From assembly GCA_021845595.1 (NCBI GenBank), contig JAJZVV010000006.1:84361-148360 (forward strand): a DNA stretch of 64,000 nucleotides, read 5' to 3'. Origin of the DNA: Pseudomonadota bacterium. Its GTDB lineage: Bacteria; Pseudomonadota; Alphaproteobacteria; Acetobacterales; Acetobacteraceae. Numbering within the stretch: position 1 is the first letter of the stretch; each line of letters opens with the position of its first letter. Below, in pieces: positions 9,393 through 51,428 of this stretch. Position numbers and translations under genes: made by a program. Under the pieces are notes generated by a model. The model had not been told where the DNA came from. It saw nothing but the letters and a program-made list of their open reading frames with translations, and did not search any database.

Positions 9393-9447
9393 GCTTGAAC
9401 CCTATCAGGCCGGCGGCCTCCGCACCATGCGCGGGCGACCGGCGGGG

Positions 9448-10278
9448 TCATGCCGCGAGCCAAAGCGCGCCCTCCTGGCGGGCGCGTCCCTCGGCCTGGA
9501 GCTTGAGCAGATGTGCCAGCACGTTGCGTTCGGCGGCGCGGCGCAGCAGCGGGTCGAGCTTCGAGTAGAGCCGGTCCATCAGCGCGAACGTATCCGCCGG
9601 CCCGTCGCGCAGCGCCGCCGCGATCGCCCCCTCGCGCATCACGCGGTGGGTGAGCAGATCGCGCACGAACCCGGTCGGGCTGGTCAGGGCCGGGCCGTGA
9701 CCGGCCAGATAGACACTGTCGTCGCGCGTCAGCAGCCGCCGCAGACTGGCGAAATAGGCGCCCATGTCCCCGCCCGGCGGGCTGACGACGGAGGTCGACC
9801 AGGCCATGACGTGGTCGGCGCTGAACAGCACGCCGTCCCGGCGGGCGAAGCAGAGATGGTCGCTGGCGTGACCCGGCGTGTGCACCGCGACGAGGCCGGC
9901 GATCTCGTCGCCGTCGTCGAGGGGAATGTCCGGAACGAAGCCGGGATCGCCGCTGATCCGGTAGCCGGCCGTCGGCGCCCCGGTCGCCGCCTGCAGCGCG
10001 GCGGTGGCGCCGAGATGGTCGCGATGCGTGTGGCTGAGGAGGATGGTGGCGACCTTGCCCCCGGTGGCGGCCATGACCGCCGCGACATGCGCGGCGTCAT
10101 CCGGTCCCGGGTCGAGCACGACGAGGCCGTCGGCGGTCTCGATCAGATAGGTGTTGGTGCCGTGATAGGTCATCGGTCCCGGGTTGGCCGCGACGACGCG
10201 GCGGATGCCGGCGACGCCCTCGGGCAGAACCGCGTGCGGCACGCCGCGCGCGGGAACCTCCTCCGTCAAGAAAGCCAT
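9448..10278 (-). CDS. MBL-fold metallo-hydrolase
   Basis: 276 aa with the HxHxDH motif (LLSHTHRDHLGA) and a downstream HTPGH. Confidence 0.85.
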   Translation of the reverse strand: MAFLTEEVPARGVPHAVLPEGVAGIRRVVAANPGPMTYHGTNTYLIETADGLVVLDPGPDDAAHVAAVMAATGGKVATILLSHTHRDHLGATAALQAATGAPTAGYRISGDPGFVPDIPLDDGDEIAGLVAVHTPGHASDHLCFARRDGVLFSADHVMAWSTSVVSPPGGDMGAYFASLRRLLTRDDSVYLAGHGPALTSPTGFVRDLLTHRVMREGAIAAALRDGPADTFALMDRLYSKLDPLLRRAAERNVLAHLLKLQAEGRARQEGALWLAA

Positions 10279-16103: not shown

Positions 16104-17888
16104 ATGTCCTCGTCCCTCGCCACCTTCGCGACCGAGACCGTGGCCGGCGGCGCTGCCTTTCCGGCAGGAACAACCCTCTATCTTCCGTCCGATGGCGGCG
16201 CGCTGCCGGCCCTCTCGGCCCTGGAACTGGCCGCCGCCAACGGCTCCCTGAACTCGACCACCGATGCCGTTCTGGCCGCTGCGGTCTCCGGCAAAACGAA
16301 CGAGCTCCTGGTCGAGAGTGGCACCGCCGTTCACGTCCCGACCGGATACACCCAGATCGCCGACCTCTCGACGACGTCGGCGCCCACGATTTTCACCAAC
16401 GGAAACACGGCGACCACCGTCCTCGGCGGGCTCTCCGGCATGACGGTTTGGGACAGCAGTCTCGGTGAATCGGTCTTCACGGGCGGCGGCGACAACGTCA
16501 TCGGCTTGTCCGCAACCGTGTCAGAGCTGCTCTATGCCGACCTGTCCGGAGCCAGTGACGTTGTCGCCTTTGGCTACGGCGAAGGCAGCGTCACCGGCGG
16601 CGGAGCTTCGAACGTCATCTGGGGTTCGGGCACCAATGGCGTGAGCAACATGAATGTCAACCTGGTCCGTGGCTCGTCCACCGTGATGGCCGGGATTGGG
16701 ACGAACACCATCGACCTCGGCGGCACCAACGACGTGATTTTCGGCGGTGGCGGCACGAATAACGACACTATCAGCGGTGCCAATGACATTTTCGTCGGCG
16801 GGGCGGGGCCATCCACCGTGACTGCGGGTGCGAGCGACGTCATCTTCGCCGGCTCGAACACCATGACCGCGAACATCAACGGCGCTGGGGCAATTTTTGT
16901 CGGCAACACCGGGAATGACACCATCAATGCCGGCACGGGTGTAACGGGCTGGGGTGGCCTCGGGACGATGGAATTCATCGTCAATAATAGCCAGGCCACG
17001 ATTGTCGGCGGGCAAGGGTCCACAATGGTCTATCAGGCCGGCAGCACCAGTGTCGGCACCTATTTCAACAACGGTTCCGGCGTCATGACGGTCAACGGCG
17101 GTATCAACAGTACCGGTGGAACGATTGTCGAGAGATGGGCTGGGGCCGGCGGCATGCTTGTGGACGCCAGCACCAGTACGGGCGATACTATCGTCATGAC
17201 CGAAGGGAACGACACGGTCTGGGCAGGAACGGCTTTGAATGGAACGATGTATTACAATGGTAGCTTCCCGATACAGCCGAACAATGACACGATCAATTTT
17301 TACGGCAACGCCTCCGGAAGCATATTGTCCGGACAAGGCAATATAATTGGACTCGAAAGCAGCGGAAATGTGACTGTGAATGACTCCAATATCTCGGCTA
17401 GCAACGTGAATGGGATTATGTCTGGACATAATCTGATTGACGCACAGAATGCGACCGGGTCCGTCGACATCACGTTCTCTATCCTGGGTGATACGGTCAT
17501 CGGTGGTGCCGGCAGCAATACCTACACGCCTTTTGTTCCATCGACGTCAACTACGTCCCTGAATGGGGATGTCGAATCGGTATCTTTCGGAACCGGGATC
17601 AACAACCTGGTGCTGAATTCGAACAATACTGGAGTTGGAACAACTCTCGATGTCTACAATTTCAACCCAAATCGCGATAATATTGAGTTTATTGGGTTGA
17701 CTAACACGTCCCTGGCGCAGGAAGCGGCGACAATGGCCGAGCAGAACCTCGTCATGCCGAATGGCCAGGACAAGGCGTCGACGTTCTTCATTACGAATGC
17801 GCTGACCGTCGACCTCTATGCCGGGCCGTCGGCTTCATCGCTGACACCGATGTCGAGCATCGTCGCATCGCATTTCGTTACCGCCTGA
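16104..17888 (+). CDS. Cys-free, acidic Gly/Thr/Asn/Ser-rich repeat protein (beta-roll/beta-helix-like; possible type I secretion substrate) in a lower-GC islet
   Basis: 594 aa counted from ATG 16104, which is preceded by GAAGGGGA. There is no signal peptide, no Cys, and very few Lys/Arg. It carries degenerate nonapeptide-like repeats (GGGDNVIGL, GGTNDVIFGGGGTNNDTISGANDIFVGG, GNTGNDTINAGTG). The upstream region is AT-rich, and GC falls markedly toward the 3' half of the gene. Confidence 0.65.
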   Translation: MSSSLATFATETVAGGAAFPAGTTLYLPSDGGALPALSALELAAANGSLNSTTDAVLAAAVSGKTNELLVESGTAVHVPTGYTQIADLSTTSAPTIFTNGNTATTVLGGLSGMTVWDSSLGESVFTGGGDNVIGLSATVSELLYADLSGASDVVAFGYGEGSVTGGGASNVIWGSGTNGVSNMNVNLVRGSSTVMAGIGTNTIDLGGTNDVIFGGGGTNNDTISGANDIFVGGAGPSTVTAGASDVIFAGSNTMTANINGAGAIFVGNTGNDTINAGTGVTGWGGLGTMEFIVNNSQATIVGGQGSTMVYQAGSTSVGTYFNNGSGVMTVNGGINSTGGTIVERWAGAGGMLVDASTSTGDTIVMTEGNDTVWAGTALNGTMYYNGSFPIQPNNDTINFYGNASGSILSGQGNIIGLESSGNVTVNDSNISASNVNGIMSGHNLIDAQNATGSVDITFSILGDTVIGGAGSNTYTPFVPSTSTTSLNGDVESVSFGTGINNLVLNSNNTGVGTTLDVYNFNPNRDNIEFIGLTNTSLAQEAATMAEQNLVMPNGQDKASTFFITNALTVDLYAGPSASSLTPMSSIVASHFVTA

Positions 17889-18643: not shown

Positions 18644-18729
18644 GCGGTCGTGGCGGAATGGTAGACGCGCAAGCTTGAGGTGCTTGTGGGGGAAACCCCG
18701 TGGAAGTTCGAGTCTTCTCGACCGCACCA
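18644..18729 (+). tRNA. tRNA-Leu (anticodon GAG)
   Basis: GCGGTCGTGGCGGAATGGTAGACGCGCAAGCTTGAGGTGCTTGTGGGGGAAACCCCGTGGAAGTTCGAGTCTTCTCGACCGCACCA. It is a type II tRNA with a long variable arm, anticodon loop TTGAGGT, acceptor stem GCGGTCG/CGACCGC, and an encoded CCA. Confidence 0.92.
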
Positions 18730-23648: not shown

Positions 23649-23873
23649 TCAGGCCGGGTCGGAACCGCCCTCGATCGGCGTCCGCCCGCGCGGCGGACGT
23701 CCGGCCCGTGTCTGCAGCGCGACCTCGATGATCGCCTCCAGCCGCACCAGCCGCTCCTTGAGCCCGGCGACCTCGTCGGCGAGCCGCTCGACCTTGCGCG
23801 CCTGCGCCTGCACGCGCTCATCGATCAGGATCACCGAGCGGATGGCGGCGATGGCCTCGCCGTAGAGGCTCAC
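23649..23873 (-). CDS. Small coiled-coil protein (74 aa), translationally coupled to the upstream RHH gene
   Basis: This is the last 74 codons of track ORF 23649-25334: VSLYGEAIAAIRSVILIDERVQAQARKVERLADEVAGLKERLVRLEAIIEVALQTRAG... GC3 is strongly high (coding-like). The GTG start overlaps the TGA of the RHH gene (TCAC at 23870-23873, i.e. GTGA on the coding strand). Confidence 0.55.
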   Translation of the reverse strand: MSLYGEAIAAIRSVILIDERVQAQARKVERLADEVAGLKERLVRLEAIIEVALQTRAGRPPRGRTPIEGGSDPA

Positions 23874-24148
23874 CGCCGGCGTCGCGGCCGGGCCGGGCCG
23901 GCCAGCGTGGCGTCGAGCTTGCGGTCGGTGCGGTCGAGCTGGCGCAGCGTCTCGGCGCGGGTGCGCTTGAACAGGTCGAGCAGCGCGCGCAGCTCCTCGG
24001 CCTCGTTCTGGTCGGCGAGATCGTAGGCATCGACGGCGCGGCGCACGAGCTCGGCGGCCGAGATCGGCCCGACCCGGCTGGCCTTCGCCTCGAGCGCGGC
24101 CTTTTCCTCCGGGGTCATCAGCACCACGACGCGGGCGGTCGCCGACAT
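23870..24148 (-). CDS. Ribbon-helix-helix (CopG/MobC-like) DNA-binding protein
   Basis: MSATARVVVLMTPEEKAALEAKASRVGPISAAELVRRAVDAY fits the RHH pattern: a beta-strand followed by two helices. ATG 24148 is preceded by GGAG at a 7-nt spacing. Confidence 0.65.
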   Translation of the reverse strand: MSATARVVVLMTPEEKAALEAKASRVGPISAAELVRRAVDAYDLADQNEAEELRALLDLFKRTRAETLRQLDRTDRKLDATLAGPARPRRRR

Positions 24149-24162
24149 GTCCCAACTCCAAA

Positions 24163-24184
24163 CATGCACATGGACATGTGCATG
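24163..24184. promoter_or_regulatory. Perfect 10-2-10 palindrome upstream of the RHH gene (candidate operator)
   Basis: CATGCACATG-GA-CATGTGCATG lies 15 nt upstream of the RHH start codon, in the 81-nt gap after the ligA stop. Confidence 0.45.
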
Positions 24185-36268: not shown

Positions 36269-36332
36269 CGCTTCTCCGGGAGTAGCGCCGCTTCGCTTGC
36301 CTCGCCGGGCCGGGCACGCCATCCTCGCGCCC

Positions 36333-36971
36333 ATGACCGCATCGTCTGCCCCTCCCTCCCGCTTCGCCCGCGTCCGCCGCCTGCCCGAGCGCGGCGCCTA
36401 TGATCGCGCCACCATCGACGCCATCCTCGATGCCGCGCCGCTCTGCCATATCGGCCACGTCATCGACGGGCGGCCGGTCGTGATCCCGACCATCCATTGG
36501 CGGGTCGGCGATACGCTCTACTGGCACGGCAGCAGCGCCAGCCGCATGCTGGAGGCGACCCCCGGGGCCGAGGTTTGCCTCACCGCGACGCTGCTGGATG
36601 CCTACGTCCTCGCCCGCTCCGGGTTCAACCATTCGGTCAATTACCGCTCGGTGATGTGCTTCGGCCGTCCACGCGCGCTCGCCGCGGCGGCGGAGAAGGA
36701 AGCGGCGCTGGAGCACTTCATCGAGCATCTGTTTCCCGGCCGCTGGCCCTCCCTGCGCCCGCCCACGGTGCAGGAACTCAAGGCCACCGCCGTGCTGTCG
36801 ATGCCGATCGACGAGGCCTCGGCGAAGCTGCGCACGGACGGGCCGCACGACCCGGAGGCCGACCTCGCCTGGCCCGTCTGGGCCGGGCTCCTGCCCGTGT
36901 TCACGATGCGTGGCGCGCCGATGCCCGATGCCCACACCGCGCCCGGAACCGAGCCGCCCCAGGGATGGTGA
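36333..36971 (+). CDS. Pyridoxamine 5'-phosphate oxidase-family (FMN-binding split-barrel) protein
   Basis: ERGAYDRATIDAILDAAPLCHIGHVIDGRPVVIPT...LYWHGSSASRML...DAYVLARSGFNHSVNYRSVMCFG is the typical Pyridox_ox_2-type flavin-nucleotide-binding pattern. The start is taken at ATG 36333. Confidence 0.7.
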   Translation: MTASSAPPSRFARVRRLPERGAYDRATIDAILDAAPLCHIGHVIDGRPVVIPTIHWRVGDTLYWHGSSASRMLEATPGAEVCLTATLLDAYVLARSGFNHSVNYRSVMCFGRPRALAAAAEKEAALEHFIEHLFPGRWPSLRPPTVQELKATAVLSMPIDEASAKLRTDGPHDPEADLAWPVWAGLLPVFTMRGAPMPDAHTAPGTEPPQGW

Positions 36972-36988: not shown

Positions 36989-39184
36989 TTGGGGCGCGCC
37001 GCCCGCCCGGTGGCGATCCCCGGCTCTAATCGGGCCCAACACGACCACCGCCGGAGGCAAGCCACGCCGGACGCGATCCCCTTCCTCCCGGCCCTCGCCT
37101 TGATCGTTCCGGGGCTGTTGGCCGTCGCTGCCGTCGAGGCCGCGCGGGCCGGGTTCGCGCGCGGGCCGGCGGCGCCAGGGCGAGCGGCCAATGCGGATCG
37201 CGGGCGGGGTGCGCGCGCCAGCCGGCCCGCCGCGAACGGCGCGCGCCGCGCCCGCATCGCCATCGTCACGCTCTGCCTCGCCGGAGCCGCGCTGGCCCTG
37301 GCGTGCCTGCTCGCTGCCCCCGCCCCGGCGAGCCTGCGGGTGCCATTGGGCGAGCCCGGCTTCGGTCTGGTGCTGGCGCTCGATGGGCTCTCCTGCTGGT
37401 TCATCCTCATTCTGTTCGCCGTCGCCGCTGCCGCCGTCGCATCATGCTCCGAAGCGAGCGCCGCGCCGCTCGCCGCCTTCGTCGCGGCCCTGGCGCTGAC
37501 CGTGCTCGCCGGCGACGGAGTGGCGTTGGTCCTCGGCCTCGAACTCACCGCGGTGACCGGCTGGGGCCTGATGCAGGCGGACACAGCCGCCGACGGGCCC
37601 GAACCGGCCCCCCGCGCGGGCGCGTCGCCGGCGTTCATCGGCATGGCCGTGCTCGGCGCCCTCGGGGTGCTCGGCGCCATCGTCCTGCTCGCCCCGGCGC
37701 TGCCCTCCGGCTTCCCGGACCTGCGCTTCGCCAGCCTGCGCGGCACGGCGCCGGCCGGCTGGAGCGAGATCGCGGTGCTGGCGCTGGCGCTGTTCGGCGC
37801 CGGCAGCCTGGCCGGCCTGGTGCCGCTGCATCTGTGGCTGCCGCCGTCTCTCAGCGCCGCACCCGTCCATGCCGGCGTGCTGATGGCCGGGGCGATGTTG
37901 CCCGTCGCCCTCTACACGCTCCTCCGCCTGCTGCTCGATCTCGCCGGCAGCGCCCCGCCGCTCGGCTGGGGCGTCGCGCTCGCCATGCTCGGGGGCTTCG
38001 CGGCGCTGCTCGGCGCGCTGCGGTCGGTGATCGAGACCGATTTGCGGGTGCTGCTCGCCTGCATCGCCATCGAACAGACCGGGCTGGTGACGATCGCCAT
38101 CGGCGTCGTCCTCATCGGCCGCGCGGCGGACCTGACGTCGCTGGCCAGCCTGGCGCTGGGGGCGGCGCTGCTGCTCGGTCTGACGCAGGGGCTGCTCTCG
38201 GCGCTGCTGCTGCTGGCCGCCGGCGCGGTCGAGCAGGGCGCGGGGACGCGCCATCTGCATCGTCTCGGCGGGTTGGCCCAGCGCATGCCGATGACCACGC
38301 TCTGCGCGCTGGTCGGCGCCGCCGGGCTCGCGGCGATGCCGCCGGGGCCGGGCTTCGCGGCGGCGTGGCTGCTGTTCCAGGCGCTGATCGGCGCGGCACG
38401 TGCCGGCGGGGTCGCGACCCAGCTCGCGCTCGCCGCCGCCGCTGCGCTGCTCGCCCTCGCCCTCGCCCTCGGCACCGTGGCCGCGCTGCGGCTGGTCGGC
38501 GTCGGCTTCCTCGGCCGCCCGCGTACCCCGCGCACCGCGGCGGCGGAAGACCCGGGGAGCGTTTCGCGGCGGGTGATGCTGGTGCTGGCCACGCTGGCGC
38601 TGATCATCGGCCTCGTCCCCGGGTTGCTGCTGCGCCTCGCCGGGCCGGCCTTCGCCGCGCTGCGCACCGAGCCGATGGGCGTGCGCGCGGCGCTCGCCGG
38701 TCTGCGCGCCCATCCCGAGCAGCCCGGCTACGCGCCGCTCGCCATCGCCGCGCTGCTCGCCGGCCTCGCCGCCATCGCATTCGTCCTGCTGCGCCGGGCC
38801 GATCCCGTCGGGCAGCAGCGCGGCCCGGCCTGGGATGGCGGCTTCGCGGCCCCGCCGCCATGGCTGCCGTTCGGCGATCCGCTGACCCAGTACGGCGCCG
38901 CATCCTTCTCGCAGATCCTGCGCCGCACGATCGGGGCCAGGCTCCTCGCGGCGCGCGAGACGGTGACCACGAAGCTGCCGGGCGAGACCAGCGCGGCACG
39001 GTTCCTGGTCACGACCCGCGATCCCGCCGCCGCCTGGCTGCTCGCCGCCATCGCCGCCGCCCGCCTGTGGCTGTGGCAGCGGATCGACCGGCTGCGGCCG
39101 TTCCCCCTTGGCGGCGCGCCGGCGCTCACGCTCGCCGCGCTGGCGGCGCTGCTGGCGGTGCTCGCCTGGCGAGGTCTGCGATGA
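36989..39184 (+). CDS. HyfB/HycC/NuoL-like antiporter-type membrane subunit (divergent)
   Basis: 731 aa and polytopic. It carries the proton_antipo_M-like block LFGAGSLAGLVPLHLWLPPSLSAAPVHAGVLMAGAMLPVALY and the TM5-like LGLELTAVTGWGLM. The track start is a TTG only 18 nt after the preceding stop, so the true start is uncertain. Confidence 0.7.
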   Translation: MGRAARPVAIPGSNRAQHDHRRRQATPDAIPFLPALALIVPGLLAVAAVEAARAGFARGPAAPGRAANADRGRGARASRPAANGARRARIAIVTLCLAGAALALACLLAAPAPASLRVPLGEPGFGLVLALDGLSCWFILILFAVAAAAVASCSEASAAPLAAFVAALALTVLAGDGVALVLGLELTAVTGWGLMQADTAADGPEPAPRAGASPAFIGMAVLGALGVLGAIVLLAPALPSGFPDLRFASLRGTAPAGWSEIAVLALALFGAGSLAGLVPLHLWLPPSLSAAPVHAGVLMAGAMLPVALYTLLRLLLDLAGSAPPLGWGVALAMLGGFAALLGALRSVIETDLRVLLACIAIEQTGLVTIAIGVVLIGRAADLTSLASLALGAALLLGLTQGLLSALLLLAAGAVEQGAGTRHLHRLGGLAQRMPMTTLCALVGAAGLAAMPPGPGFAAAWLLFQALIGAARAGGVATQLALAAAAALLALALALGTVAALRLVGVGFLGRPRTPRTAAAEDPGSVSRRVMLVLATLALIIGLVPGLLLRLAGPAFAALRTEPMGVRAALAGLRAHPEQPGYAPLAIAALLAGLAAIAFVLLRRADPVGQQRGPAWDGGFAAPPPWLPFGDPLTQYGAASFSQILRRTIGARLLAARETVTTKLPGETSAARFLVTTRDPAAAWLLAAIAAARLWLWQRIDRLRPFPLGGAPALTLAALAALLAVLAWRGLR

Positions 39185-40140
39185 CCCTGCTCAGCGGCCT
39201 CGTCGCCCAGGCCCTGCACCTCGCGCTCATGCTCGGGCTGGCGCCGGGATTAGCCGGGTTCGTCCGGTGGCTGAAAGCGCGGCTGCTGCACCGGGCCGGA
39301 CCGCCGCCGCGGCTCGCCTATCGGGACCTGCTGCGGCTGATGCGCAAGCAGACGGTGCGCCCGCAGAGCAGCTCCTTCGTCTTCGCCGCCGCGCCCGTCG
39401 TCGCCACGGCCGCCAGCGTGCTCGCCGCGGCGCTGGTTCCATCCTTCGCCCGCGGCATGACGACCGCGCCGCTCGCCGACCTGCTGCTGATCGCGGGCCT
39501 GTTCGCCCTGGCGCGGAGCGCGCTGGTGCTGGGCGCGATGGATGCGGGCAGCGCCGTCGGCGGCATCGGCGCCAGCCGCGTCGCCGCCTACGCCGTCTTC
39601 GCCGAGCCGGCGACGCTGCTCGTCGTCGTGACGCTCGCCGTTCTCCTCGGCACCACCAATCTCGACCAACTCACCGGGCTGCTCCAACCCGGCGGGGTCG
39701 CAGCGCACGCGCCGCTCGGCCTCGCACTGGCCCCGCTGGTGGCGAGCGCCCTGGCCCAGGTCGGGGTCGGGCCGATCGCAGGCGCAGCGAGCGCGGCCGA
39801 GCCGGCGATGCTGTTCGAGGCCCTGACGCTCGAACATGGCGGGCGTGACCTGGCGCTGCTGGAGTTCGGCGCGGCCGTGCGGCTGATCACCTGGTTCAGC
39901 CTGATCGCCGCGCTGTTTCTGCCCGCCTTCACCGCCCCCGCCGCCGCCTTTCCGCTCGGTTGGCTGATCGGCCTCGCCGCCTGGGCGGTCAAACTGACCG
40001 TGCTGGCCGGGGCGGTGGCGCTGGCCGAGGCCGCGATGGCGCGGCTGGGCGTTGCGCGGGTCCCCGGGGTCCTCGGTGCGGCCATCGTGCTGGGCCTGCT
40101 GGCCGCGGCACTCGTCGCCCTCGGCGAGGGGCTCGCCTGA
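39181..40140 (+). CDS. HycD/HyfC/NuoH-like membrane subunit
   Basis: The gene starts at ATG 39181 (ATGA overlap with the upstream stop). MTLLSGLVAQALHLALMLGLAP..ARLLHRAGPPPRLAYRDLLRLMRKQTV, MDAGSAVGGIGASR and LAEAAMARLGV align block-for-block with my recollection of E. coli HycD. It is the 3' part of track ORF 37303-40140. Confidence 0.8.
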   Translation: MTLLSGLVAQALHLALMLGLAPGLAGFVRWLKARLLHRAGPPPRLAYRDLLRLMRKQTVRPQSSSFVFAAAPVVATAASVLAAALVPSFARGMTTAPLADLLLIAGLFALARSALVLGAMDAGSAVGGIGASRVAAYAVFAEPATLLVVVTLAVLLGTTNLDQLTGLLQPGGVAAHAPLGLALAPLVASALAQVGVGPIAGAASAAEPAMLFEALTLEHGGRDLALLEFGAAVRLITWFSLIAALFLPAFTAPAAAFPLGWLIGLAAWAVKLTVLAGAVALAEAAMARLGVARVPGVLGAAIVLGLLAAALVALGEGLA

Positions 40141-40763
40141 TGGCCATCCCGCTCACCCAGCCGCTGGCGCCCCTGTTCGGCAGCGTGGCGCTGATGGCCG
40201 GCCTGGTGCTGATGACGCGCCGGCGCGCTGGCGCGCTGATCGGCGCGGGCGCGGTCCAGGCCTGGGCGGCGGCCGGCGTCGCAGCCGTACGCGGCGGCCT
40301 CGCCGGGGACGCGGGCCTCGTCGCCGCCGCGCTGATCACCCTGGCGGCGAGCGGCGTGGCGATCCCGATCGCGCTCACACTCATCACCCGCCGGCGCGAT
40401 GCGGCGCCGGTGTCGGCGCCGGGAAGCATGGGGCTCGGCGCCGCGCTGGTCGGGCTGGCCGCGCTGGCGGTCCCGGGCGTGGCCATTGCCGGCGGTGCGC
40501 TGACCCGCGAGAGCCTGGCGGTCGCCATCGCAGTGGGGCTGCTCGGCGCGCTGCTCGTCGCCATGCGCCGCAGCCCGCTCGCGCAACTCGCCGGGGTTCT
40601 CTCGCTCGGCAACGGGGTGATCCTGGCCGCCACGCCGGGCGTGCCGCTGATCGCAACGGTCCCGCTGGTAGCGCTGGCACCGGCGGCGCTGCTGCTGGGT
40701 GCCATGGGGCTGGGTGCGGTCGATCTGGACGCCGGCGCCACGCCCGGCTCGCCGGGGCCATGA
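40140..40763 (+). CDS. HyfE/NuoK-like small membrane subunit
   Basis: 207 aa starting at ATG 40140 (TGATG overlap). It is a multi-TM Ala/Leu/Gly-rich protein. The block LAVAIAVGLLGALLVAMRRSPLAQLAGVLSLGNGVILAA resembles the HyfE block ...QRNILRQIFGYCLMENG... Confidence 0.6.
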   Translation: MAIPLTQPLAPLFGSVALMAGLVLMTRRRAGALIGAGAVQAWAAAGVAAVRGGLAGDAGLVAAALITLAASGVAIPIALTLITRRRDAAPVSAPGSMGLGAALVGLAALAVPGVAIAGGALTRESLAVAIAVGLLGALLVAMRRSPLAQLAGVLSLGNGVILAATPGVPLIATVPLVALAPAALLLGAMGLGAVDLDAGATPGSPGP

Positions 40764-42166
40764 ACCCGCCGCTCGCCGCGCTGGTGCCTTGCATCCCGTT
40801 CGCTGCGGCGATCGCGCTCGGCCTGATCGGCGATCGGCGATTGGGCGGCCGGCGGATCGGCGTCTGGGTCAATCTCGCCGCCGCCGGCGCGACGTTTCTC
40901 GCCGCCCTCGCCTTCGCCCTTGAGCCGCCGGCGTCCTCGGCCCTTCTGCTGGCCGATCCGCTGGCGCGGCATTTCGCCCTGCTCGCCGGCTTCGTCGGCC
41001 TCACCGCTTCCTGCGCCGAGTTCGGGCAGGCGGACCCACACGACCTCGCCCACGCCCTCGGCCAAGGCTTCCTCGGCGCCGTTCTGGCGGCGCTGATGTC
41101 GAACAGCCTCGTCGTCACCATCGCCGCGGCCGAGGCCGCTTGCCTCGCGCTCGCCGCCGCCGCGGCCCTGCCGCTGACGCCAGAGGCGATGCGGGCGGCC
41201 TGGACCGGCACCGTCACCGCGGGCCTCGCCGGCGGCCTCGCCCTGTTCGGCGTGATCCTGCTCGCCCTCGCGGCCCTGCCGGCACCAACCGCGCCGGCGC
41301 CAACCGCGCCGGCGCTGACCTGGAGCGCGCTGCCCCAGGTCGTGGCCGCCGGCCAGGGCGGCCTGCTCAGCCTCGGCTTCGTGTTCGTCCTCGTCGGCGC
41401 CGCGGCGATGGCGATGCTGGCGCCGCTGCATCTATGGAGTTCGGGGCGGGACGAAGCCGCGCCGGCGATGACAGTGCCGCTGCTGACGACCCCGTTGATG
41501 ACGACCCCGTTGATGACGACGCTGGCGATCACGGTCATTCTCCGGCTGCGCCAGGCGGTCGCGGACACTGTCGACGCGGCTCTGCCCGGGCCGGCGGTTC
41601 TGGCGCTCGGCCTGCTGGCGCTGCTGATCGCGGCGCTGGCACTGGGGCGGCAGCGCGACGCGCGGCGCCTCGTCGCCGTCGCCACGGTGGGACAGGCCGG
41701 CCTCGTGGCCGTCGCGATCGGGCTCGGCACCAGCGCGGCCGTGTTCGCCGGCGTGCTGCACCTGACGCTCGCGACGCTGGTGCTGACCGCGCTGCTGTCA
41801 CGCGCCAGGACGGCCGAGGCCGGCGTGACGGTCGCCGCCGGCCTGGTCGCGCTGGCGGGGCTGCCGCCCTTCGGCCTTTTCTCTGGCATCGTTCTCATCG
41901 CCGCGGCCGCCGCGCACGCCGCGCCGCTGCTGCTGGCCCCGCTCGGCGCGGCTCTCGGCCTCAGTGCCTGGGCCATGCTGGCGCGGCTGCCGGCGCTCCG
42001 GGCGCCAGGCGCGGCGACGAGCCCGACCGCGCCGCGCGCGGCAGGCTGGGCACACGTGAGGATCATCGTGCCCTGGCTGCATCTGGCGCTCACCGCGCTG
42101 CTCGGCCTGGCCATGCCGATCCCGCTGGTGCGCTGGTTCGCCACCATCGCCGGCAGTCTGGGATGA
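40760..42166 (+). CDS. HyfF/NuoN-like antiporter-type membrane subunit (divergent)
   Basis: 468 aa starting at ATG 40760 (ATGA overlap). It is polytopic, with the block GFVFVLVGAAAMAMLAPLHLWSSGRDEAAPAMTVPLL resembling the G.GxKxxxxPxHxWLP motif. It contains two internal 15-nt tandem duplications. Confidence 0.65.
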   Translation: MNPPLAALVPCIPFAAAIALGLIGDRRLGGRRIGVWVNLAAAGATFLAALAFALEPPASSALLLADPLARHFALLAGFVGLTASCAEFGQADPHDLAHALGQGFLGAVLAALMSNSLVVTIAAAEAACLALAAAAALPLTPEAMRAAWTGTVTAGLAGGLALFGVILLALAALPAPTAPAPTAPALTWSALPQVVAAGQGGLLSLGFVFVLVGAAAMAMLAPLHLWSSGRDEAAPAMTVPLLTTPLMTTPLMTTLAITVILRLRQAVADTVDAALPGPAVLALGLLALLIAALALGRQRDARRLVAVATVGQAGLVAVAIGLGTSAAVFAGVLHLTLATLVLTALLSRARTAEAGVTVAAGLVALAGLPPFGLFSGIVLIAAAAAHAAPLLLAPLGAALGLSAWAMLARLPALRAPGAATSPTAPRAAGWAHVRIIVPWLHLALTALLGLAMPIPLVRWFATIAGSLG

Positions 42167-43674
42167 GCGCCGCCGCCGCCATCATCCGTGCCGGCGCGGC
42201 CGCCGACCAGCGCCCCTGGCCGCGTCATGCGCTGAGCCGCGACCGCTGGCAGGCGATGGCGGCGGCGCTGGGCGCGGCGGATGCGCCCTCGCTGCAAGGA
42301 GTGTGGGCCGAGGCCGAACGCGTCCACGCCTTGTTCCTCGATGCCGGATCGCCGCTATCGGCCTCGGTCGAGATCGCTGGCGGGACCTACCCGGCGCTGT
42401 CGCCGCACTGCCCCGCCGCGTCCTGGTTCGAGCGCATGATCCACGATCTGTTCGGCCATGCCGCCGAGGGTGGGCGCGATGTGCGGGCGTGGCTCGACCA
42501 CGGCGCCTGGGCCACCGCCGCCCCGCTCGGCCCACGCCAGGCCGCGTTGCCGCCGCGCGTCGGCGCCCCGGAGCCGCCGGAATTCCTCCTCGCCGAGGGT
42601 GAGGATCTGAACCAGATCGGGCTCGGGCCGGTCGCCGGCGCCATCGCCGAGCCGGCGCATCTGCGGCTCACCGCCCAGGGCGAGACGCTGGTGCGGCTGG
42701 AGGTTCGGCTCGGCTACGCCCACAAGGGCACGCTCGGGCTGATGCGGGGCACGCCGCCACGCGCCGCGGCACGGTTCGCCGCTCGCCTGTCCGGCAGCGC
42801 GACCGTGGCGCACGGGCTGGCCTATGCCCACGCCGTGGAGGCGGCGCTCGGCGTGGTCCCGCCGCCGCGCGCGGTGGCGCTGCGGGCGGTGATGGCGGAG
42901 CTGGAGCGCATCCGGTCCCATCTCGATGCCGCCGCCGCGATCCTCGCCGAGGCCGGCGCGGCCTTCCTGGAGACGCGGTTCGGCTGGCATCGGGAAGCGA
43001 TGCACGAGGCCGCCGGCCGCGCCTTCGGGCACCGGCTGATGATGGACGGCGTCGCGCCCGGCGGGCTCGCCACCGATCTCGCCGCCGACGGCGCCGCCGC
43101 GATCCGCGCCGCGCTGGAGGCGCTCGCCGCCGAACTGCCGGATCTCGTGCGCAGGCTGGACCGCTCGGCGAGCCTCGGCACCCGCATGGCCGGGATCGGC
43201 CGCCTCGCGCCCGACCTCGCCGCCGGGTTCGGCGCTTCCGGACCGGTTGGGCGTGCGTCCGGGCGTGGCGGCGATGCGCGCCTCGTGCCGGGCTATCCGC
43301 CCTACCCGGCGCTCGGCCTCGAGGTCCCGACCCGCGCCGGGGGCGATGTCGCGGCGCGGCTGCGCGTGCGCCTCGGCGAGGTGCCTCAGAGCACGCGGCT
43401 GCTGCGCGCCCTGCTCGACGCGCTACCCGATGGCACCATCGCGACCGCCCTGCCGGCGGCGAGCGGCGAGGGACTGGGCGTCGCCGAGTCCAGCCGGGGC
43501 ACGGTCTGGCACTGGGTGCGCATCGAGGGCGGCCTCATCGCCGCCGCCTTCGCCCGCGACCCCGACTGGCTGCACTGGCCGCTCCTGGAAGCGGCCATGC
43601 GCAACGGCATGCTCGAAGACCTGCCGCTCTGCGCCGCCTCCTTCGGCCTCACCAGCTCGGGAGTGGACCTGTGA
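42163..43674 (+). CDS. Fused NuoC-NuoD / HycE(HyfG)-like large subunit lacking the [NiFe] cysteine ligands
   Basis: 503 aa starting at ATG 42163 (ATGA overlap). The NuoC-like part reads YPALSPHCPAASWFERMIHDLFGHAAEG. The large-subunit part reads GLGPVAGAIAEPAHLRLTAQGETLVRLEVRLGYAHKG. The L1 position reads RLSGSATVAH instead of RxCGxCxxxH. The C-terminus SFGLTSSGVDL replaces (S)FDPCxxCxxR. Confidence 0.8.
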   Translation: MSAAAAIIRAGAAADQRPWPRHALSRDRWQAMAAALGAADAPSLQGVWAEAERVHALFLDAGSPLSASVEIAGGTYPALSPHCPAASWFERMIHDLFGHAAEGGRDVRAWLDHGAWATAAPLGPRQAALPPRVGAPEPPEFLLAEGEDLNQIGLGPVAGAIAEPAHLRLTAQGETLVRLEVRLGYAHKGTLGLMRGTPPRAAARFAARLSGSATVAHGLAYAHAVEAALGVVPPPRAVALRAVMAELERIRSHLDAAAAILAEAGAAFLETRFGWHREAMHEAAGRAFGHRLMMDGVAPGGLATDLAADGAAAIRAALEALAAELPDLVRRLDRSASLGTRMAGIGRLAPDLAAGFGASGPVGRASGRGGDARLVPGYPPYPALGLEVPTRAGGDVAARLRVRLGEVPQSTRLLRALLDALPDGTIATALPAASGEGLGVAESSRGTVWHWVRIEGGLIAAAFARDPDWLHWPLLEAAMRNGMLEDLPLCAASFGLTSSGVDL

Positions 43675-44201
43675 CGATCTGGCAGCGGTTGCGGCACACG
43701 CTGCGCCACGGGCCGGCGACCCTGCCGGCAGCGGCGCCATCGGCGGAGACGGCGGCGGCGCTGGCGGCGCGGCTGGACGCGGCGGCGCAGCGCCGGCTCG
43801 GGCGCAGCCTCGCCATCCGCCATGTCGGCGCCGGCGGCTGCGATGGCTGCGAGCTCGAACTGCGCGCGCTGACCGGCATCGTCTACGACCTCGAACGGTT
43901 CGGCCTGCGCTTCGTCACCAGCCCCCGCCACGCCGACATCCTGCTCGCGACCGGCCCGCTCACGCGCAGCATGGCCGAGGCGCTGGCGCGCACGCACGCG
44001 GCCATGGGCGAGCCGAAATGGGTCGTCGCGGTCGGCGACTGCGCCATCGACGGCGGCGTGTTCAAGGGCAGCTACGCCTGCCTCGGCGGCATCACGACCC
44101 TGCCCGTCGATCTCGTCATCCGCGGCTGCCCGCCGACGCCGTGGCAGGTGCTGGAGGGGCTGCGGGCGCTGATCGAGGCCAACGCGGCGCCGGCGCGCTG
44201 A
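43671..44201 (+). CDS. HycG/HyfI/NuoB-like small subunit ([4Fe-4S] ligands retained)
   Basis: 176 aa starting at GTG 43671 (GTGA overlap). GAGGCDGCELE, VAVGDCAIDGGVF and IRGCPPTP give the four-Cys pattern of the proximal/N2-type cluster of the NuoB/HycG family. Confidence 0.85.
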   Translation: MTIWQRLRHTLRHGPATLPAAAPSAETAAALAARLDAAAQRRLGRSLAIRHVGAGGCDGCELELRALTGIVYDLERFGLRFVTSPRHADILLATGPLTRSMAEALARTHAAMGEPKWVVAVGDCAIDGGVFKGSYACLGGITTLPVDLVIRGCPPTPWQVLEGLRALIEANAAPAR

Positions 44202-44214
44202 GCGGACCCGGACG

Positions 44215-44631
44215 ATGCTGCATCTCGTCAAACTCGCCGTCGGCATCCGCGATGTGGCGCATCTGGCCGCGGTGCAGCAGGCGCGGGCGGCTGCCGATCC
44301 GCCGCTGCGGCACCTGACCCGCAACAATCCGAGGCGCGCCAGCGAGATCGTCGCCGGCGGCTCGATCTACTGGAGCATCGCCGGCACCCTCCAGGTACGC
44401 CAGCGCATCCTGGCCATCGAACCGGCCACGCGCCCGGACGGCAGTGCCTGCACCGCGCTGGTCCTCGAACCGGCGCTGGTGCGCGTCGTCGCCCAGGCGA
44501 TGAAACCCTTCCAGGGCTGGCGCTATCTGCGCCCCGAGGATGCGCCGCCCGACCTCGCCGAGGCCTCCAGCGACGCCGACGGCATGCCGCCTTCCATGCA
44601 GGCGGCCCTGCGCGCGCTCGGCCTGCTATAG
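44215..44631 (+). CDS. DUF1489 family protein
   Basis: MLHLVKLAVGIRDVAHL...HLTRNNPRRASEIVAGGSIYWSIAGTLQVRQRILAIE matches my recollection of the conserved alphaproteobacterial DUF1489 pattern. It starts 13 nt after the small-subunit stop. Confidence 0.7.
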   Translation: MLHLVKLAVGIRDVAHLAAVQQARAAADPPLRHLTRNNPRRASEIVAGGSIYWSIAGTLQVRQRILAIEPATRPDGSACTALVLEPALVRVVAQAMKPFQGWRYLRPEDAPPDLAEASSDADGMPPSMQAALRALGLL

Positions 44632-48986: not shown

Positions 48987-50096
48987 CTACTCCACGACGA
49001 TGCGCGGCGCCGGCGCGGCGGCGGCGAGCGCGGCTTCGGTCGCCTCCCACACCCGCTGGGCCAGGGCGGCGAAGGCGCGGGCGGCCTCGCTCTCCGGGGC
49101 GGCGGCGACGATGGGGGTGCCGGCGTCGGAGGCGGTGCGGATGTCGAGCAGCAGCGGCACCTCGCCGAGGAACGGCGCGCCGAGCCGCGCGGCCTCCGCG
49201 CGCGCGCCGCCATGGCCGAAAATCTCGGCGCGGTGGCCGCAGTTCGGGCAGCAATAATAGCTCATGTTCTCGACCAGCCCGAGCACGGGGACATTGACGC
49301 GCTCGAACATGCGCACCCCGCGCCTTGCATCGAGCAGCGCGATGTCCTGCGGCGTCGAGACGATCACCGCGCCGGTCAGCGCCACGCGCTGGGCCATGGT
49401 CAACTGCGCGTCCCCGGTGCCGGGCGGCATGTCCACCACCATCACGTCGAGCTTGCCCCACTCGGCCTGGCCCATCATCTGCTCCAGCGCGCCCATCACC
49501 ATCGGGCCGCGCCAGATCATCGGCGTTTCCTCATCGACGAGGAAGCCGATGGACATCGCCTTCAGCCCCCAGGCTTCCAGCGGGATCATCCGCTCCTGGC
49601 CCTTGGCGCCGCGCACCTCCGGCTTGCGCGCCAGCCCGAGCATGCGCGGCAGGCTCGGGCCGTAGATGTCGGCATCGAGCAGCCCGACGGCGAGGCCCTG
49701 GCGGGCCAGGGCGACGGCGAGATTGACCGCGACGGTGGATTTGCCCACCCCGCCCTTGCCCGAGGCGACGGCGATGATCGCGCGCACGCCGGGCAGCAGC
49801 GCGGCGCGCTGGCCGGGCGCCGGCGGCGGCTTCGCGGGCTCGGGCGGCTTGTGGGCGGTGAGGATGACGGCGGCGTTGGTCACCCCCGGCTGGCGGGCGA
49901 GCAGCGCCTCCGCCTCCCGGCGCAGCGGCTCCAGCGCCGCGGCGCGGGCGCGCTCGACGCTGAGCGCCACCTGCACCAGCCCGCCGCGCACCTCGATGCC
50001 CTCGACCATGCCGGCGGCGACGATGTCCTGCCCGCTCGCCGGGTCGCGCAGAGTGCGCAGCGCCGCGCGCAGTGTCTCCTGTGTGGGGTTGCTCAT
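48987..50096 (-). CDS. apbC: Mrp/NBP35-family iron-sulfur cluster carrier ATPase
   Basis: An N-terminal DUF59-like region is followed by the deviant Walker A AVASGKGGVGKST and a CPNCGH motif. The start is ATG 50096 (MSNPTQETL). Confidence 0.92.
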   Translation of the reverse strand: MSNPTQETLRAALRTLRDPASGQDIVAAGMVEGIEVRGGLVQVALSVERARAAALEPLRREAEALLARQPGVTNAAVILTAHKPPEPAKPPPAPGQRAALLPGVRAIIAVASGKGGVGKSTVAVNLAVALARQGLAVGLLDADIYGPSLPRMLGLARKPEVRGAKGQERMIPLEAWGLKAMSIGFLVDEETPMIWRGPMVMGALEQMMGQAEWGKLDVMVVDMPPGTGDAQLTMAQRVALTGAVIVSTPQDIALLDARRGVRMFERVNVPVLGLVENMSYYCCPNCGHRAEIFGHGGARAEAARLGAPFLGEVPLLLDIRTASDAGTPIVAAAPESEAARAFAALAQRVWEATEAALAAAAPAPRIVVE

Positions 50097-50216
50097 GCGC
50101 TTGCCAGCCTTTCCTGTCCGGTCGATAACCATCCGCCGCTCCGGCTCTCGATATGCATCCGGCCGGCGCGCACGCCAATGGCCCCGCCCTGCGGCGCGGA
50201 TACAGGAGGAGCGGCG

Positions 50217-51428
50217 ATGTCTTGGAACAGCGGCGGGAATGCCGGCGGCTCGGGGCCGTGGGGCCCGCCCGGGCGGCCGAACGGCCCGCGCCCGCCGCCA
50301 CCGGGCCGCGGCGGCCCGCCCTTCCCCGACCTCGACGAGTTCCTCGCCTGGCTGCGCTCGACCTTCGGCGGCGGCGGAGGAGGCCGGCCGGGCGGGCTCG
50401 GGCCGGCGAGCTTCGGCGGCGGCCGCGGCCTCGGCCTGCTCGTGGTCGGGCTGATCGGCGTCTGGCTCGCCAGCGGCTTCTTCCGCGTCCAGCCGGACCA
50501 GCAGGGTCTGGTGCTGCGCTTCGGCGCCTTCGTGCGCAGCGCCGGGCCGGGGCTGAACTACCACCTGCCCTGGCCGATCGAGACGGTCGAACGGCCGGCG
50601 GTGACGCGCATCAACCGGATCGAGATCGGCTATCGCTCGCGCGGACGCGACGAGATCACCGGCGAGATGCGCCCGCCGCGCGATGTCGGCGCCGAAAGCC
50701 TCATGCTCACCGGCGACGAGAACATCATCGACATCAATTTCACCGTGTTCTGGCACATCAGCAACGCCGCGGATTTCCTGTTCGGCGTGCGCAACCCGGA
50801 GGAAACGGTGAAATCCGCCGCCGAAAGCGTGATGCGCGAGGTGATCGGCCGCACGCCGATCCAGCCGGCGCTGACCGCGGCGCGCGCGCAGATCGAGACC
50901 GCCGTGCACAAGGGCACGCAGGCGATCCTCGACCGCTACGGCGCCGGCGTCGAGATCACCCAGGTGCAGCTCCAGCGCGTCGATCCGCCGGCCGCGGTGA
51001 TCGACAGTTTCCGCGACGTGCAGCGCGCCAATACCGACGCCGAACGCATGCGCAACGAGGCCGAGGCTTACCACAACGACATCGTCCCGCGCGCGCGCGG
51101 CGATGCGGCGCGCATCGTCGCCGAGGCGGAGGGCGCGCGGCAGGCGGCGATCGCGCAGGCCACCGGGGAGGCGCAGCGCTTCGACAGCGTGCTCGCCGCC
51201 TACCGCGCGGCCAAGGACGTGACATTGCGCCGGCTCTATATCGACGCCATGCAGAGCGTGGTCGAACACGCCCAGACGGTGGTGGTGGACCCGGCGCTGA
51301 AGGGCGTACTGCCGCTGCTGAACCTCGTGCCCGAGCCAGCGCGGGCTCCTTCGCCGGCTCGGGCGGAAGTGCCGGCGCAACCCTCCGCTCCGCCGCCCGC
51401 CACGGCCCAACCGGGAAAAGCGCCATGA
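50217..51428 (+). CDS. hflK: FtsH protease modulator HflK
   Basis: A Gly/Pro-rich N-terminus and one TM segment precede the SPFH/band-7 domain (FRVQPDQQGLVLRFG..., MLTGDENIIDINF). ATG 50217 is preceded by AGGAGGA. Confidence 0.92.
   Translation: MSWNSGGNAGGSGPWGPPGRPNGPRPPPPGRGGPPFPDLDEFLAWLRSTFGGGGGGRPGGLGPASFGGGRGLGLLVVGLIGVWLASGFFRVQPDQQGLVLRFGAFVRSAGPGLNYHLPWPIETVERPAVTRINRIEIGYRSRGRDEITGEMRPPRDVGAESLMLTGDENIIDINFTVFWHISNAADFLFGVRNPEETVKSAAESVMREVIGRTPIQPALTAARAQIETAVHKGTQAILDRYGAGVEITQVQLQRVDPPAAVIDSFRDVQRANTDAERMRNEAEAYHNDIVPRARGDAARIVAEAEGARQAAIAQATGEAQRFDSVLAAYRAAKDVTLRRLYIDAMQSVVEHAQTVVVDPALKGVLPLLNLVPEPARAPSPARAEVPAQPSAPPPATAQPGKAP

Follow-up and report, generated by a model that had tools for sequence, protein, structure and literature searches.

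What is left for a membrane complex to do when it is built like an energy-converting hydrogenase, lacks the nickel-iron ligands and has also lost the buried charges by which its relatives would move ions? This question is raised by a six-gene operon at positions 36989-44201 on the plus strand of a stretch of 64,000 nucleotides (contig JAJZVV010000006.1, positions 84,361 to 148,360), which was analyzed as a whole and will be referred to as the window; its host is an Acetobacteraceae-like organism. Judged by homology and gene order, the six genes are orthologous to the complex called Ehr or hyfBCEFGI, known as Hyq in alphaproteobacterial diazotrophs, which would be a minimal L-shaped relative of complex I and of the group 4 [NiFe] hydrogenases. 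The kind of complex is already known; new here is the strong degeneracy of this copy. Most likely, and with a chance that we put a little above even, the operon encodes an assembled, non-pumping, membrane-anchored Fe-S module derived from Hyq/Ehr.

The operon consists of six open reading frames (ORFs; g1 to g6), each with one terminal stop codon and a third-position G+C content (GC3) in frame of 0.90-0.95. Consecutive genes overlap by their start and stop codons (ATGA at 39181, TGATG at 40138-40142, ATGA at 40760, ATGA at 42163 and GTGA at 43671). An earlier note, made from the letters of this DNA, had described these six plus-strand frames, their coordinates and the overlapping codons, all of which were borne out exactly. 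Its subunit labels were supported by Pfam for g1, g2, g4, g5 and g6 and were left without a Pfam or NCBIfam match for g3. The first gene, g1 (36989..39184), encodes a HyfB/HyqB/EhrA-like antiporter-type subunit of the NuoL family (Proton_antipo_M, 2.3e-23), g2 (39181..40140) a HycD/HyqC/NuoH-like subunit (NADHdh, 6.2e-24) and g4 (40760..42166) a second antiporter-type subunit, HyfF/HyqF-like and of the NuoM/N family, with a weak match to Proton_antipo_M (1e-6). The 503-aa product of g5 (42163..43674) is a fused NuoC-NuoD/HycE/HyqG-like large subunit (EhrL) matching Complex1_49kDa (3.9e-31), NiFeSe_Hases (3.3e-10) and Complex1_30kDa (4e-5), and g6 (43671..44201) encodes the NuoB/HycG/HyqI-like small subunit (EhrS; Oxidored_q6, 6e-28). 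The small membrane subunit of g3 (40140..40763) is the weakest of the six identities. Its suggested HyfE/HyqE-like nature, with a NuoK-like C-terminal half, derives from operon position and from weak, sub-threshold PF00420 (NuoK/ND4L) matches in the C-terminal half of 11 of 12 orthologues (best 2.6e-5); a profile of the orthologues gave no match among Protein Data Bank (PDB) sequences.

For g1, the ORF itself stands, and the length of 731 aa given in the earlier note is probably too great: orthologues measure ~645 aa, and over the first ~85 codons the differences from close relatives are spread evenly over the three codon positions (20, 18 and 22 at positions 1, 2 and 3). The true start probably lies downstream of the TTG at 36989, and in-frame TTG codons (codons 38 and 44) are found at about 37100-37120. 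Between the stop codon of the upstream Pyridox_ox_2 gene and this probable start, a segment of ~90-100 nt (37020-37110) shows higher nucleotide conservation among the relatives of the clade than its surroundings. It contains GGAGG and lacks codon-position bias, and annotated start codons vary between relatives; the segment may be a leader or regulatory element, not coding sequence.

Comparison with NCBIfam and with PDB sequences placed the subunits nearest to group 4 hydrogenases. The best NCBIfam models were hydrogenase 4 subunit B for g1 (335 bits vs an equivalog cut-off of 667 bits) and hydrogenase 4 subunit F for g4 (155 vs 533 bits); g6 was the sole subunit to reach a cut-off, and did so barely (NuoB subfamily, 116.5 vs 116 bits). 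The closest solved relatives are subunits of the E. coli formate hydrogenlyase, followed by the Pyrococcus furiosus membrane-bound hydrogenase (MBH) and then complex I. Best PDB matches were HycC (7z0s_C) for g1, HycD (7z0s_D, 6e-27) for g2, HycE (3e-45) for g5 and HycG (1.3e-30) for g6, which aligns with HycG and MbhJ over CxxC...C...GCPP; MbhH, MbhL, MbhJ and MbhM came second. An AlphaFold2 model of g5 (pLDDT 85, pTM 0.88) was most similar in Foldseek to HycE (7z0s_E, TM-score 0.90), then to E. coli NuoCD (TM-score 0.87). The model was of low confidence in the linker between the domains, in the beta1-beta2 loop (156-164) and at the C-terminus (498-503), elements of the former active site. 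Homology of the large and small subunits to group 4 hydrogenases is thereby clear, and a membrane set of NuoH, NuoL/M/N and HyfE types is present in one cluster, the HyfE type by position and the PF00420 matches of orthologues. The Ehr-type, hyf-ordered six-subunit complex proposed in the earlier note agrees with profiles, structures and gene order alike.

The operon nevertheless differs from each of the better characterized systems. With the E. coli formate hydrogenlyases FHL-1 (Hyc, PDB 7Z0S) and FHL-2 (Hyf) it shares the best matches for g1, g2, g5 and g6, the hyf gene order and the small-subunit CxxC, whereas the NiFe site, HycF/HyfH, HycB/HyfA, HyfD, FdhF, the hyp genes and HycI are absent from the window and the NCBIfam scores lie far below the equivalog cut-offs. 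Homologues of NuoB, C, D, H, K (K-like), L and M/N connect it to complex I (Nuo/Nqo) and cyanobacterial NDH-1, from which it is set apart by having six genes instead of 11-14 subunits (NuoA, E, F, G, I and J are absent), by a CxxC in place of the tandem CC of the small subunit and by the loss of membrane charges. The positions of Thermus thermophilus Nqo4 His38 and Tyr87, which we take to be quinone-binding residues of complex I, are occupied by Ala and Gly in g5. Archaeal MBH and MBS (Mbx) and the Mrp antiporters have antiporter-like subunits in common with the window, and MBH and MBS a NuoB/D-like module; MBS moreover illustrates that new chemistry can follow when the NiFe site is lost. These archaeal complexes, however, comprise 13-14 subunits, including the NuoI-like MbhN/MbsN and MrpE/F/G-like proteins, and keep their buried charges, and the match between g5 and MbsL is weak (5e-15).

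Complexes of this build have been described under several names. Coppi is said to have introduced Ehr as Ech-hydrogenase-related for Geobacter GSU0739-45, and the expansion 'energy-converting hydrogenase-related' reportedly stems from Marreiros 2013, as quoted in later papers. The novelty suggested by the earlier note did not hold up, since the architecture is widespread and already described as hyfBCEFGI, Ehr or Hyq (PMC2864759, PMC7735108, PMC5596200, PMC7894505, PMC10284858, PMC6728331). It occurs as hyfBCEFGI in Cupriavidus metallidurans and C. necator (PMC2864759) and in Nitrospira (PMC5596200, PMC10284858), as the Ehr complex of Geobacter, whose subunits are more abundant on formate (PMC7894505), in M. 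tuberculosis (Rv0082-87; PMC6728331), in ammonia-oxidising archaea (PMC10432482) and in candidate phyla (PMC6349859). A fitness paper on C. necator says nothing on its hyf-like genes (PMC11540253). Degli Esposti treats ehr and hyq jointly, as subtypes of group 4 that lack the NiFe ligands (PMC4758237).

The likeness is closest to hyqRBCEFGI of Azorhizobium caulinodans (AZC_4360-4355), a NifA-dependent operon that was studied genetically in 2009-2012 (PMC2650096, PMC3357923). Both have the same six structural genes in the same order, a fused NuoC::NuoD large subunit (504 aa in HyqG, 503 aa in g5) and no NuoI, HyfA or HyfD, HyqI carries the CxxC...C...C for one [4Fe-4S] cluster, and Xanthobacter, Bradyrhizobium and Azospirillum orthologues were among the loci retrieved with the window protein. 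Deletion of hyq slowed diazotrophic growth, raised H2 evolution 10-15 fold at 20 uM O2 and lowered H2 output below 1 uM O2 (PMC2650096, PMC3357923). The 'unknown function, no role established' of the earlier note therefore needs correction, as the orthologous operon has deletion phenotypes (PMC2650096, PMC3357923). The architecture is functionally characterised only in part, by genetics and not by cell-free activity. On the other hand, the window lacks hyqR, a convincing sigma-54 site and nif genes, its host is the Acetobacteraceae-like organism, only one of the three cysteines typical of the HyqG family is present, and most conserved ionisable residues of HyqB, HyqC, HyqE and HyqF are lost.

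The Ludwig laboratory proposed Hyq to be a six-subunit H2:ubiquinone oxidoreductase or 'endo-hydrogenase' (PMC2650096, PMC3357923), and by orthology to an operon whose deletion alters H2 evolution the window complex might likewise be a genuine hydrogenase with a non-canonical site, working between H2 and the quinone pool. The metal site makes this very improbable here. Relative to the group 4 motifs L1 (RxCGxCxxxH) and L2 (DPCxxCxxH/R), g5 has only remnants: RLSGSATVAH (42784..42813, plus strand) in place of RVCGICGFAH in HycE and RLSGDSTVAH in the family consensus (HMMER alignment to 7z0s_E), and, at the C-terminus, SFGLTSSGVDL (43639..43671, plus strand) instead of SFELCYxCxDR in hydrogenases and SFNCSYSGVDL in the alphaproteobacterial family, so that DPCYSCTDR of HycE pairs with GLTSSGVDL. 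A search of 1.84 billion proteins (5,237 matches at E<=1e-3, 483 at E<=1e-30) supplied 107 representative large subunits, which were aligned jointly with the window sequence. All four cysteines, present as C/C/C/C in the 11 true hydrogenases of this alignment, are replaced (S210/A213/T497/G500), which confirms the loss of Ni-Fe ligands recorded in the earlier note; about 95 of the 108 representatives nearest the window likewise lack the NiFe cysteines. The authors of the Hyq work themselves noted that HyqG misses both CxxC motifs and that three other cysteines are conserved (PMC2650096, PMC3357923). These three (Cys-258, -491 and -497 in A. caulinodans) are found in 88%, 93% and 86% of the canonical set, at window positions 261, 490 and 496, and the window has L261, C490 and L496. 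Close to the former active site, g5 also lacks H158 and D212 of the family, and the window contains no hyp genes. For Hyq of A. caulinodans itself, hydrogenase activity was never demonstrated in a cell-free assay, as its authors concede (PMC2650096, PMC3357923), and the claim is contested; HydDB, furthermore, classes the catalytic subunit of hyfBCEFGI, as in Acidithiobacillus ferrooxidans, as a non-hydrogenase (PMC7735108).

In clear contrast to the large-subunit active site, the [4Fe-4S] site of the small subunit is intact. C57 and C60 (43839-43850) of g6 form the hydrogenase-type CxxC and, together with C124 (44040-44042) and C153 (44127-44129), align with the cluster ligands of HycG and MbhJ. 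All four have counterparts in HyqI, where they are assigned to an N2-type [4Fe-4S] cluster, and their conservation is 100% both across 69 canonical genomes and among the degenerate relatives without exception.

Alignment of the six proteins with those from 65-76 other genomes clearly demonstrated how far this copy deviates. Among columns that are at least 90% conserved, the window differs in 35 of 128 (g1), 27 of 87 (g2), 33 of 63 (g3), 74 of 146 (g4), 33 of 160 (g5) and 8 of 69 (g6), that is, in 12-52% of them across the six subunits, compared to a median of 1-2 columns in the other genomes. Conserved ionisable residues are kept at 15 of 24 sites in g1, 17 of 25 in g2, 5 of 13 in g3 and 10 of 23 in g4, and at 46 of 54 and 11 of 12 sites in g5 and g6, respectively. 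Of the 14 residues that are ~100% conserved in canonical alphaproteobacterial large subunits, not one is found in g5. Canonical Ehr members share with the window the group 4-type large and small subunits without NiFe cysteines and the NuoL/M/N-, NuoH- and HyfE-like membrane subunits; unlike the window, they retain RxSGDSxVAH...SFNLSYSG and the full network of membrane charges.

The losses in the membrane arm fall on the residues of this network. In g1, K274L, H288L, K305P, H396L, H400Q, K404S and E459A affect sites that are 98-100% conserved in 58 canonical genomes. Six ionisable residues of g2 are replaced (E134V, E193Q, R196V, D200A, H205A, H212F), and its loop reads AQVGVGPIAGAASAAEPAMLFEALTLEHGGR where the family has AENARIPVDNPATHLELTMVHEAMVLEYSGR (AENARIPVD...LEYSGR). 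Both family-invariant glutamates of g3 are gone (E157G, E173T), as is K71 (K71S), and g4 shows K217M, H338A, K342L and E377I, a change of WLPDAH to WSSGRD and a deletion of ~20 aa. Canonical Bradyrhizobium g4 residues K217, E125 and E377 align with the Lys of transmembrane helix 7 (TM7), the TM5 Glu and the TM12 Glu motifs of E. coli NuoM and of MbhH; in NuoM these are presumably K234, E144 and E407 in the published numbering. The lost g1 and g2 sites align with the corresponding motifs of HycC, MbhH and HycD, so that in both antiporter-like subunits the positions of TM7 Lys, TM8 Lys, TM11 His/Lys and TM12 Glu are concerned. The buried Lys/Glu/His network to which the words 'energy-converting' in the name Ehr refer is thus not present in this copy: sites that are 97-100% conserved in 58-69 canonical genomes, with degenerate loci set aside, carry L, P, Q, S, A, M, G, T or I in the window.

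These replacements bear directly on the possibility of a fully functional energy-converting Ehr complex, in which a cytoplasmic redox reaction at the interface of large and small subunits would drive ion translocation. The complete six-subunit set with its tight translational coupling, the intact [4Fe-4S] site, the pumping-type residue set conserved in the canonical family, and the retention of the TM5 glutamates of g1 and g4 and of E142, E207, E213 and E218 of g2 would all be in agreement with such a complex. With the TM7, TM8, TM11 and TM12 positions non-ionisable in both antiporter-like subunits, both NuoK-type glutamates and six NuoH-like residues replaced by non-ionisable ones and the constraint on the membrane genes relaxed, we regard it as improbable for the window. 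An energy-converting complex with new chemistry, as implied by the earlier note, probably does not apply here for the same loss of residues.

The degeneracy is not confined to a single assembly. A family scan with one genome per GTDB species gave at least 599 matching stretches, from which 80 loci were fetched, almost all of them from Alphaproteobacteria (including Acetobacteraceae, Bradyrhizobium, Xanthobacter, Azospirillum and Hyphomicrobium), and the B-C-E-F-G-I order was identical in every sufficiently long locus. A scan of metagenome contigs with g2 yielded one distant relative only; the close relatives came from the protein database. These close relatives, from six independent assemblies and with 86-94% protein identity (L081-L083, L085-L088, L090), carry the same substitutions as the window, whereas a lineage with 57% identity (L089) keeps every canonical residue. 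The same sites, and additional ones, have disappeared from four further Acetobacteraceae loci (L009, L060 and, from Rhodopila, L054 and L070). The four Fe-S cysteines persist in all of these loci, which a neighbour-joining tree of g5 places together with the window. Between degenerate lineages g5 has diverged to 47-58% identity. A fast-evolving group of about 45 stands out among the 108 large-subunit representatives; its members have no more than 5 of the 14 signature residues. Consistent with accelerated change, the window shows lower identity than canonical Acetobacteraceae to Bradyrhizobium, Xanthobacter and Azospirillum outgroups in every subunit, with the largest gaps in g3 (29% vs 53%) and g4 (34% vs 50%).

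Rates of nonsynonymous and synonymous substitution (dN/dS, Nei-Gojobori) between the window and its close relatives demonstrated that purifying selection continues on all six genes. The ratio was lowest in the operon for g6 (0.15-0.19), followed by g5 (0.22-0.31), g2 (0.26-0.48), g1 (0.35-0.38), g4 (0.41-0.55) and g3 (0.47-0.65), compared to 0.09-0.11 for the neighbouring ThyX, SspB and Pyridox_ox_2 genes and 0.19-0.25 for DUF1489 and GluQRS. The peripheral module is accordingly under about the same constraint as the neighbours, and constraint on the membrane arm is 2-5 times weaker. In the comparison with L085, the window shows 979 substitutions and nine internal indels over 7.15 kb, and in that with L090 280 substitutions and four internal indels; all 13 indels are multiples of three. 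Some of the length changes are explained by two in-frame 15-bp tandem repeats in g4, both on the plus strand. The first (41278..41315; 2.5 copies, Tandem Repeats Finder score 69, 95% matches) coincides with a length difference to L085. The second (41484..41520; 2.5 perfect copies, score 74, 100% matches) encodes a repeated TTPLM pentapeptide, present in the protein as PLLTTPLMTTPLMTT, just after the degenerate TM7 motif, and length differences to both L085 and L090 fall there. Low dN/dS together with in-frame indels argues that all six reading frames are maintained.

The same data have to be weighed against slow pseudogenisation, the main rival explanation, in which the operon would have lost its use (for example H2 recycling linked to N2 fixation) and the ORFs would survive because stop codons are rare at 76% G+C. 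Massive loss of key residues and accelerated evolution of g1-g4 would be expected from decay, as would the repeat expansion and the ~20-aa deletion in g4, and long spurious ORFs are common in the window. Neither the hyqR regulator nor a sigma-54-type promoter is present. Some relatives appear to be further advanced on such a path: g3 is unrecognisable or has no room in the degenerate loci L054, L070, L060 and L009, and in L079 (4952-9718), where g1, g2 and g4 are each split into two high-scoring segment pairs, the operon is probably a frameshifted pseudogene. In L054 and L070 the space between g2 and g5 (about 8100-10000) holds a single ORF of 511-634 codons, too short for g3 and g4 of normal size, and g3 may be lost or fused there. 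However, dN/dS is significantly below 1 for every gene, with g5 and g6 at about the level of neighbouring housekeeping genes, and the chance that 13 of 13 indels remain in frame across about 1,260 substitutions is about (1/3)^13. The five start/stop overlaps and the four Fe-S cysteines are kept in every member of the clade, and the degenerate state has persisted while g5 diverged to the extent given above. Decay therefore appears unlikely to us, though it deserves to be taken seriously.

Taken together, we favour the assembled, non-pumping Fe-S module named at the outset, which might have arisen as follows. The ancestral complex would have combined a membrane arm of NuoL-like, NuoH-like, HyfE/NuoK-like and NuoM/N-like subunits with a peripheral module made of the fused NuoC-NuoD-like large subunit and the NuoB-like small subunit with one [4Fe-4S] cluster. 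The full buried Lys/Glu/His set conserved in canonical relatives implies that a reaction at the interface between the peripheral module and the NuoH-like subunit is coupled to ion movement there. In the common ancestor of the lineage of the window, the two antiporter-like subunits would have been stripped of this charge network, as would the NuoH loop, and the NuoK-like glutamates would have gone as well. Two of the three HyqG-family cysteines would have been lost in the same lineage, and conservation would have stayed high in the small subunit with its Fe-S site and in most of the large one. We infer that the complex is probably still made and assembled, yet would not translocate protons by the mechanism of the superfamily; the membrane arm might serve as anchor or scaffold for a single-cluster redox module with a residual role in electron transfer or redox sensing. 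A more far-reaching version, that an old and diversified Acetobacteraceae subclade of Hyq/Ehr shed the whole proton-translocation network, kept its small and large subunits under almost normal purifying selection and turned the complex I-type scaffold into a membrane-anchored module with one cluster, which would serve redox reactions or sensing and convert no energy, is put forward only tentatively and is in our view rather doubtful.

Several points weigh against the non-pumping module. The relaxation of the membrane genes relative to their neighbours, by the factor of 2-5, and the in-frame expansion of the g4 repeats resemble slow decay. In membrane proteins rich in Ala and Leu, a dN/dS below 1 may be due in part to a general constraint on hydrophobicity or to the composition bias at 76% G+C. 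Absence of pumping is predicted from residues, and other ion paths could exist. Single losses are not diagnostic, as the TM7 position is occupied by Leu in E. coli HycC, too; the argument for loss of pumping is therefore cumulative and rests on no single site. The grouping of the window with the degenerate lineages comes from a crude neighbour-joining tree, and a second tree places it beside a canonical representative. Finally, the host organism is known only as a metagenome-assembled genome (MAG).

Ehr and Hyq complexes are the smallest natural relatives of complex I and are very widespread, and the sole functional claim made for them, the cysteine-less 'endo-hydrogenase' of Azorhizobium, is biochemically unconfirmed. 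The window adds no new kind of complex to these; it provides a natural variant in which the coupling machinery is erased and the Fe-S module is under selection. If this variant is functional, the peripheral module would have a role independent of ion pumping, and the variant would be a ready-made comparative control for separating residues that serve peripheral-arm chemistry from those that serve coupling. If it is decaying, it calls for caution in annotation: behind an intact-looking 'hydrogenase 4', 'formate hydrogenlyase' or 'NADH-quinone oxidoreductase' of a high-G+C genome there can be a complex that no longer functions or has been put to another use.

The surroundings of the operon provide no obvious partner. 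The 53 likely genes of the window were all scanned with Pfam; beside the operon they gave housekeeping functions only and no Fer4/NuoI/HycB, hyp, fdh or nuo gene, so that the absence of NuoI/HycF-type, HycB, fdh and hyp genes stated in the earlier note holds for the entire 64 kb. Group 4 partners of the HycF/HyfH/EchF/MbhN type are accordingly missing from the cluster and the window, and the sole match to CxxCxxCxxxC in the 64 kb sits in a non-coding frame. The operon is flanked by genes for SspB, Pyridox_ox_2 and DUF1489. The Pyridox_ox_2 flavoprotein (36297-36971, ending 18 bp upstream) was considered as an electron-input module and rejected, being adjacent in the clade of the window only and in none of 80 other loci. 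DUF1489 (44215-44631, plus strand, 14 bp downstream) was likewise rejected as a seventh subunit: it neighbours the operon in no more than about 9-12 Acetobacteraceae loci, where it is encoded on the opposite strand. It adjoins the small-subunit gene in L006, L007, L012, L014, L018, L020, L050, L058 and L089 and is on the same strand in the clade of the window; conserved synteny without co-orientation makes a role as subunit improbable.

When the ORFs flanking the operon in the fetched loci were clustered, no conserved redox partner emerged. One neighbour recurred, a small helix-turn-helix (HTH) gene of ~80-100 aa directly upstream and on the same strand in about 28 or more loci, all from Hyphomicrobiales (at about 4530-4930 in L029, L032, L034, L044, L049, L051, L064, L080 and about 20 more). 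It presumably corresponds to hyqR of Azorhizobium. A second HTH copy, just downstream and on the opposite strand, occurs in several Bradyrhizobium loci. The window contains no homologue of the upstream HTH gene. Matches to the sigma-54 consensus in the window (60) did not exceed expectation (64.6), and none upstream of the operon was convincing; NifA boxes were not searched for.

A few minor observations concern other loci and other parts of the window. In locus L089 (7979-14612) the call for g1 is truncated, a gap of 300 bp comes after it, and g4 and g5 are called as one fusion of 988 aa; the protein P0070 is a 672-aa fusion of large and small subunits. About 4.8 kb downstream of the operon, an ORF on the minus strand (48987-51380) encodes an ApbC/Mrp/NUBPL-type Fe-S carrier (FeS_assembly_P and ParA/NUBPL); its N-terminal extension of ~430 aa has no Pfam match, and the ORF may be over-extended. 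Mitochondrial NUBPL homologues supply Fe-S clusters to complex I, and the nearness of this gene to the operon is probably a coincidence. The window as a whole has a G+C content of 72% and carries a two-piece alphaproteobacterial tmRNA. A 772-aa ORF on the minus strand (3565-5883) is without a Pfam match and has strong coding statistics (GC3 0.91). The segment 16000-18000, beside a tRNA-Leu gene (18644-18729), drops to a G+C content of 0.59 compared to 0.70-0.77 elsewhere. It contains one weak ORF (16574-16999) without Pfam match, Rfam returned nothing at the gathering threshold, and the segment may be an island remnant or a non-coding RNA region. Between housekeeping genes on the minus strand (23649-24169), two overlapping ORFs of 74 and 99 aa, the second with a sub-threshold NikA-like (mobilisation/ribbon-helix-helix) match, may represent a toxin-antitoxin pair or the remnant of a mobile element.

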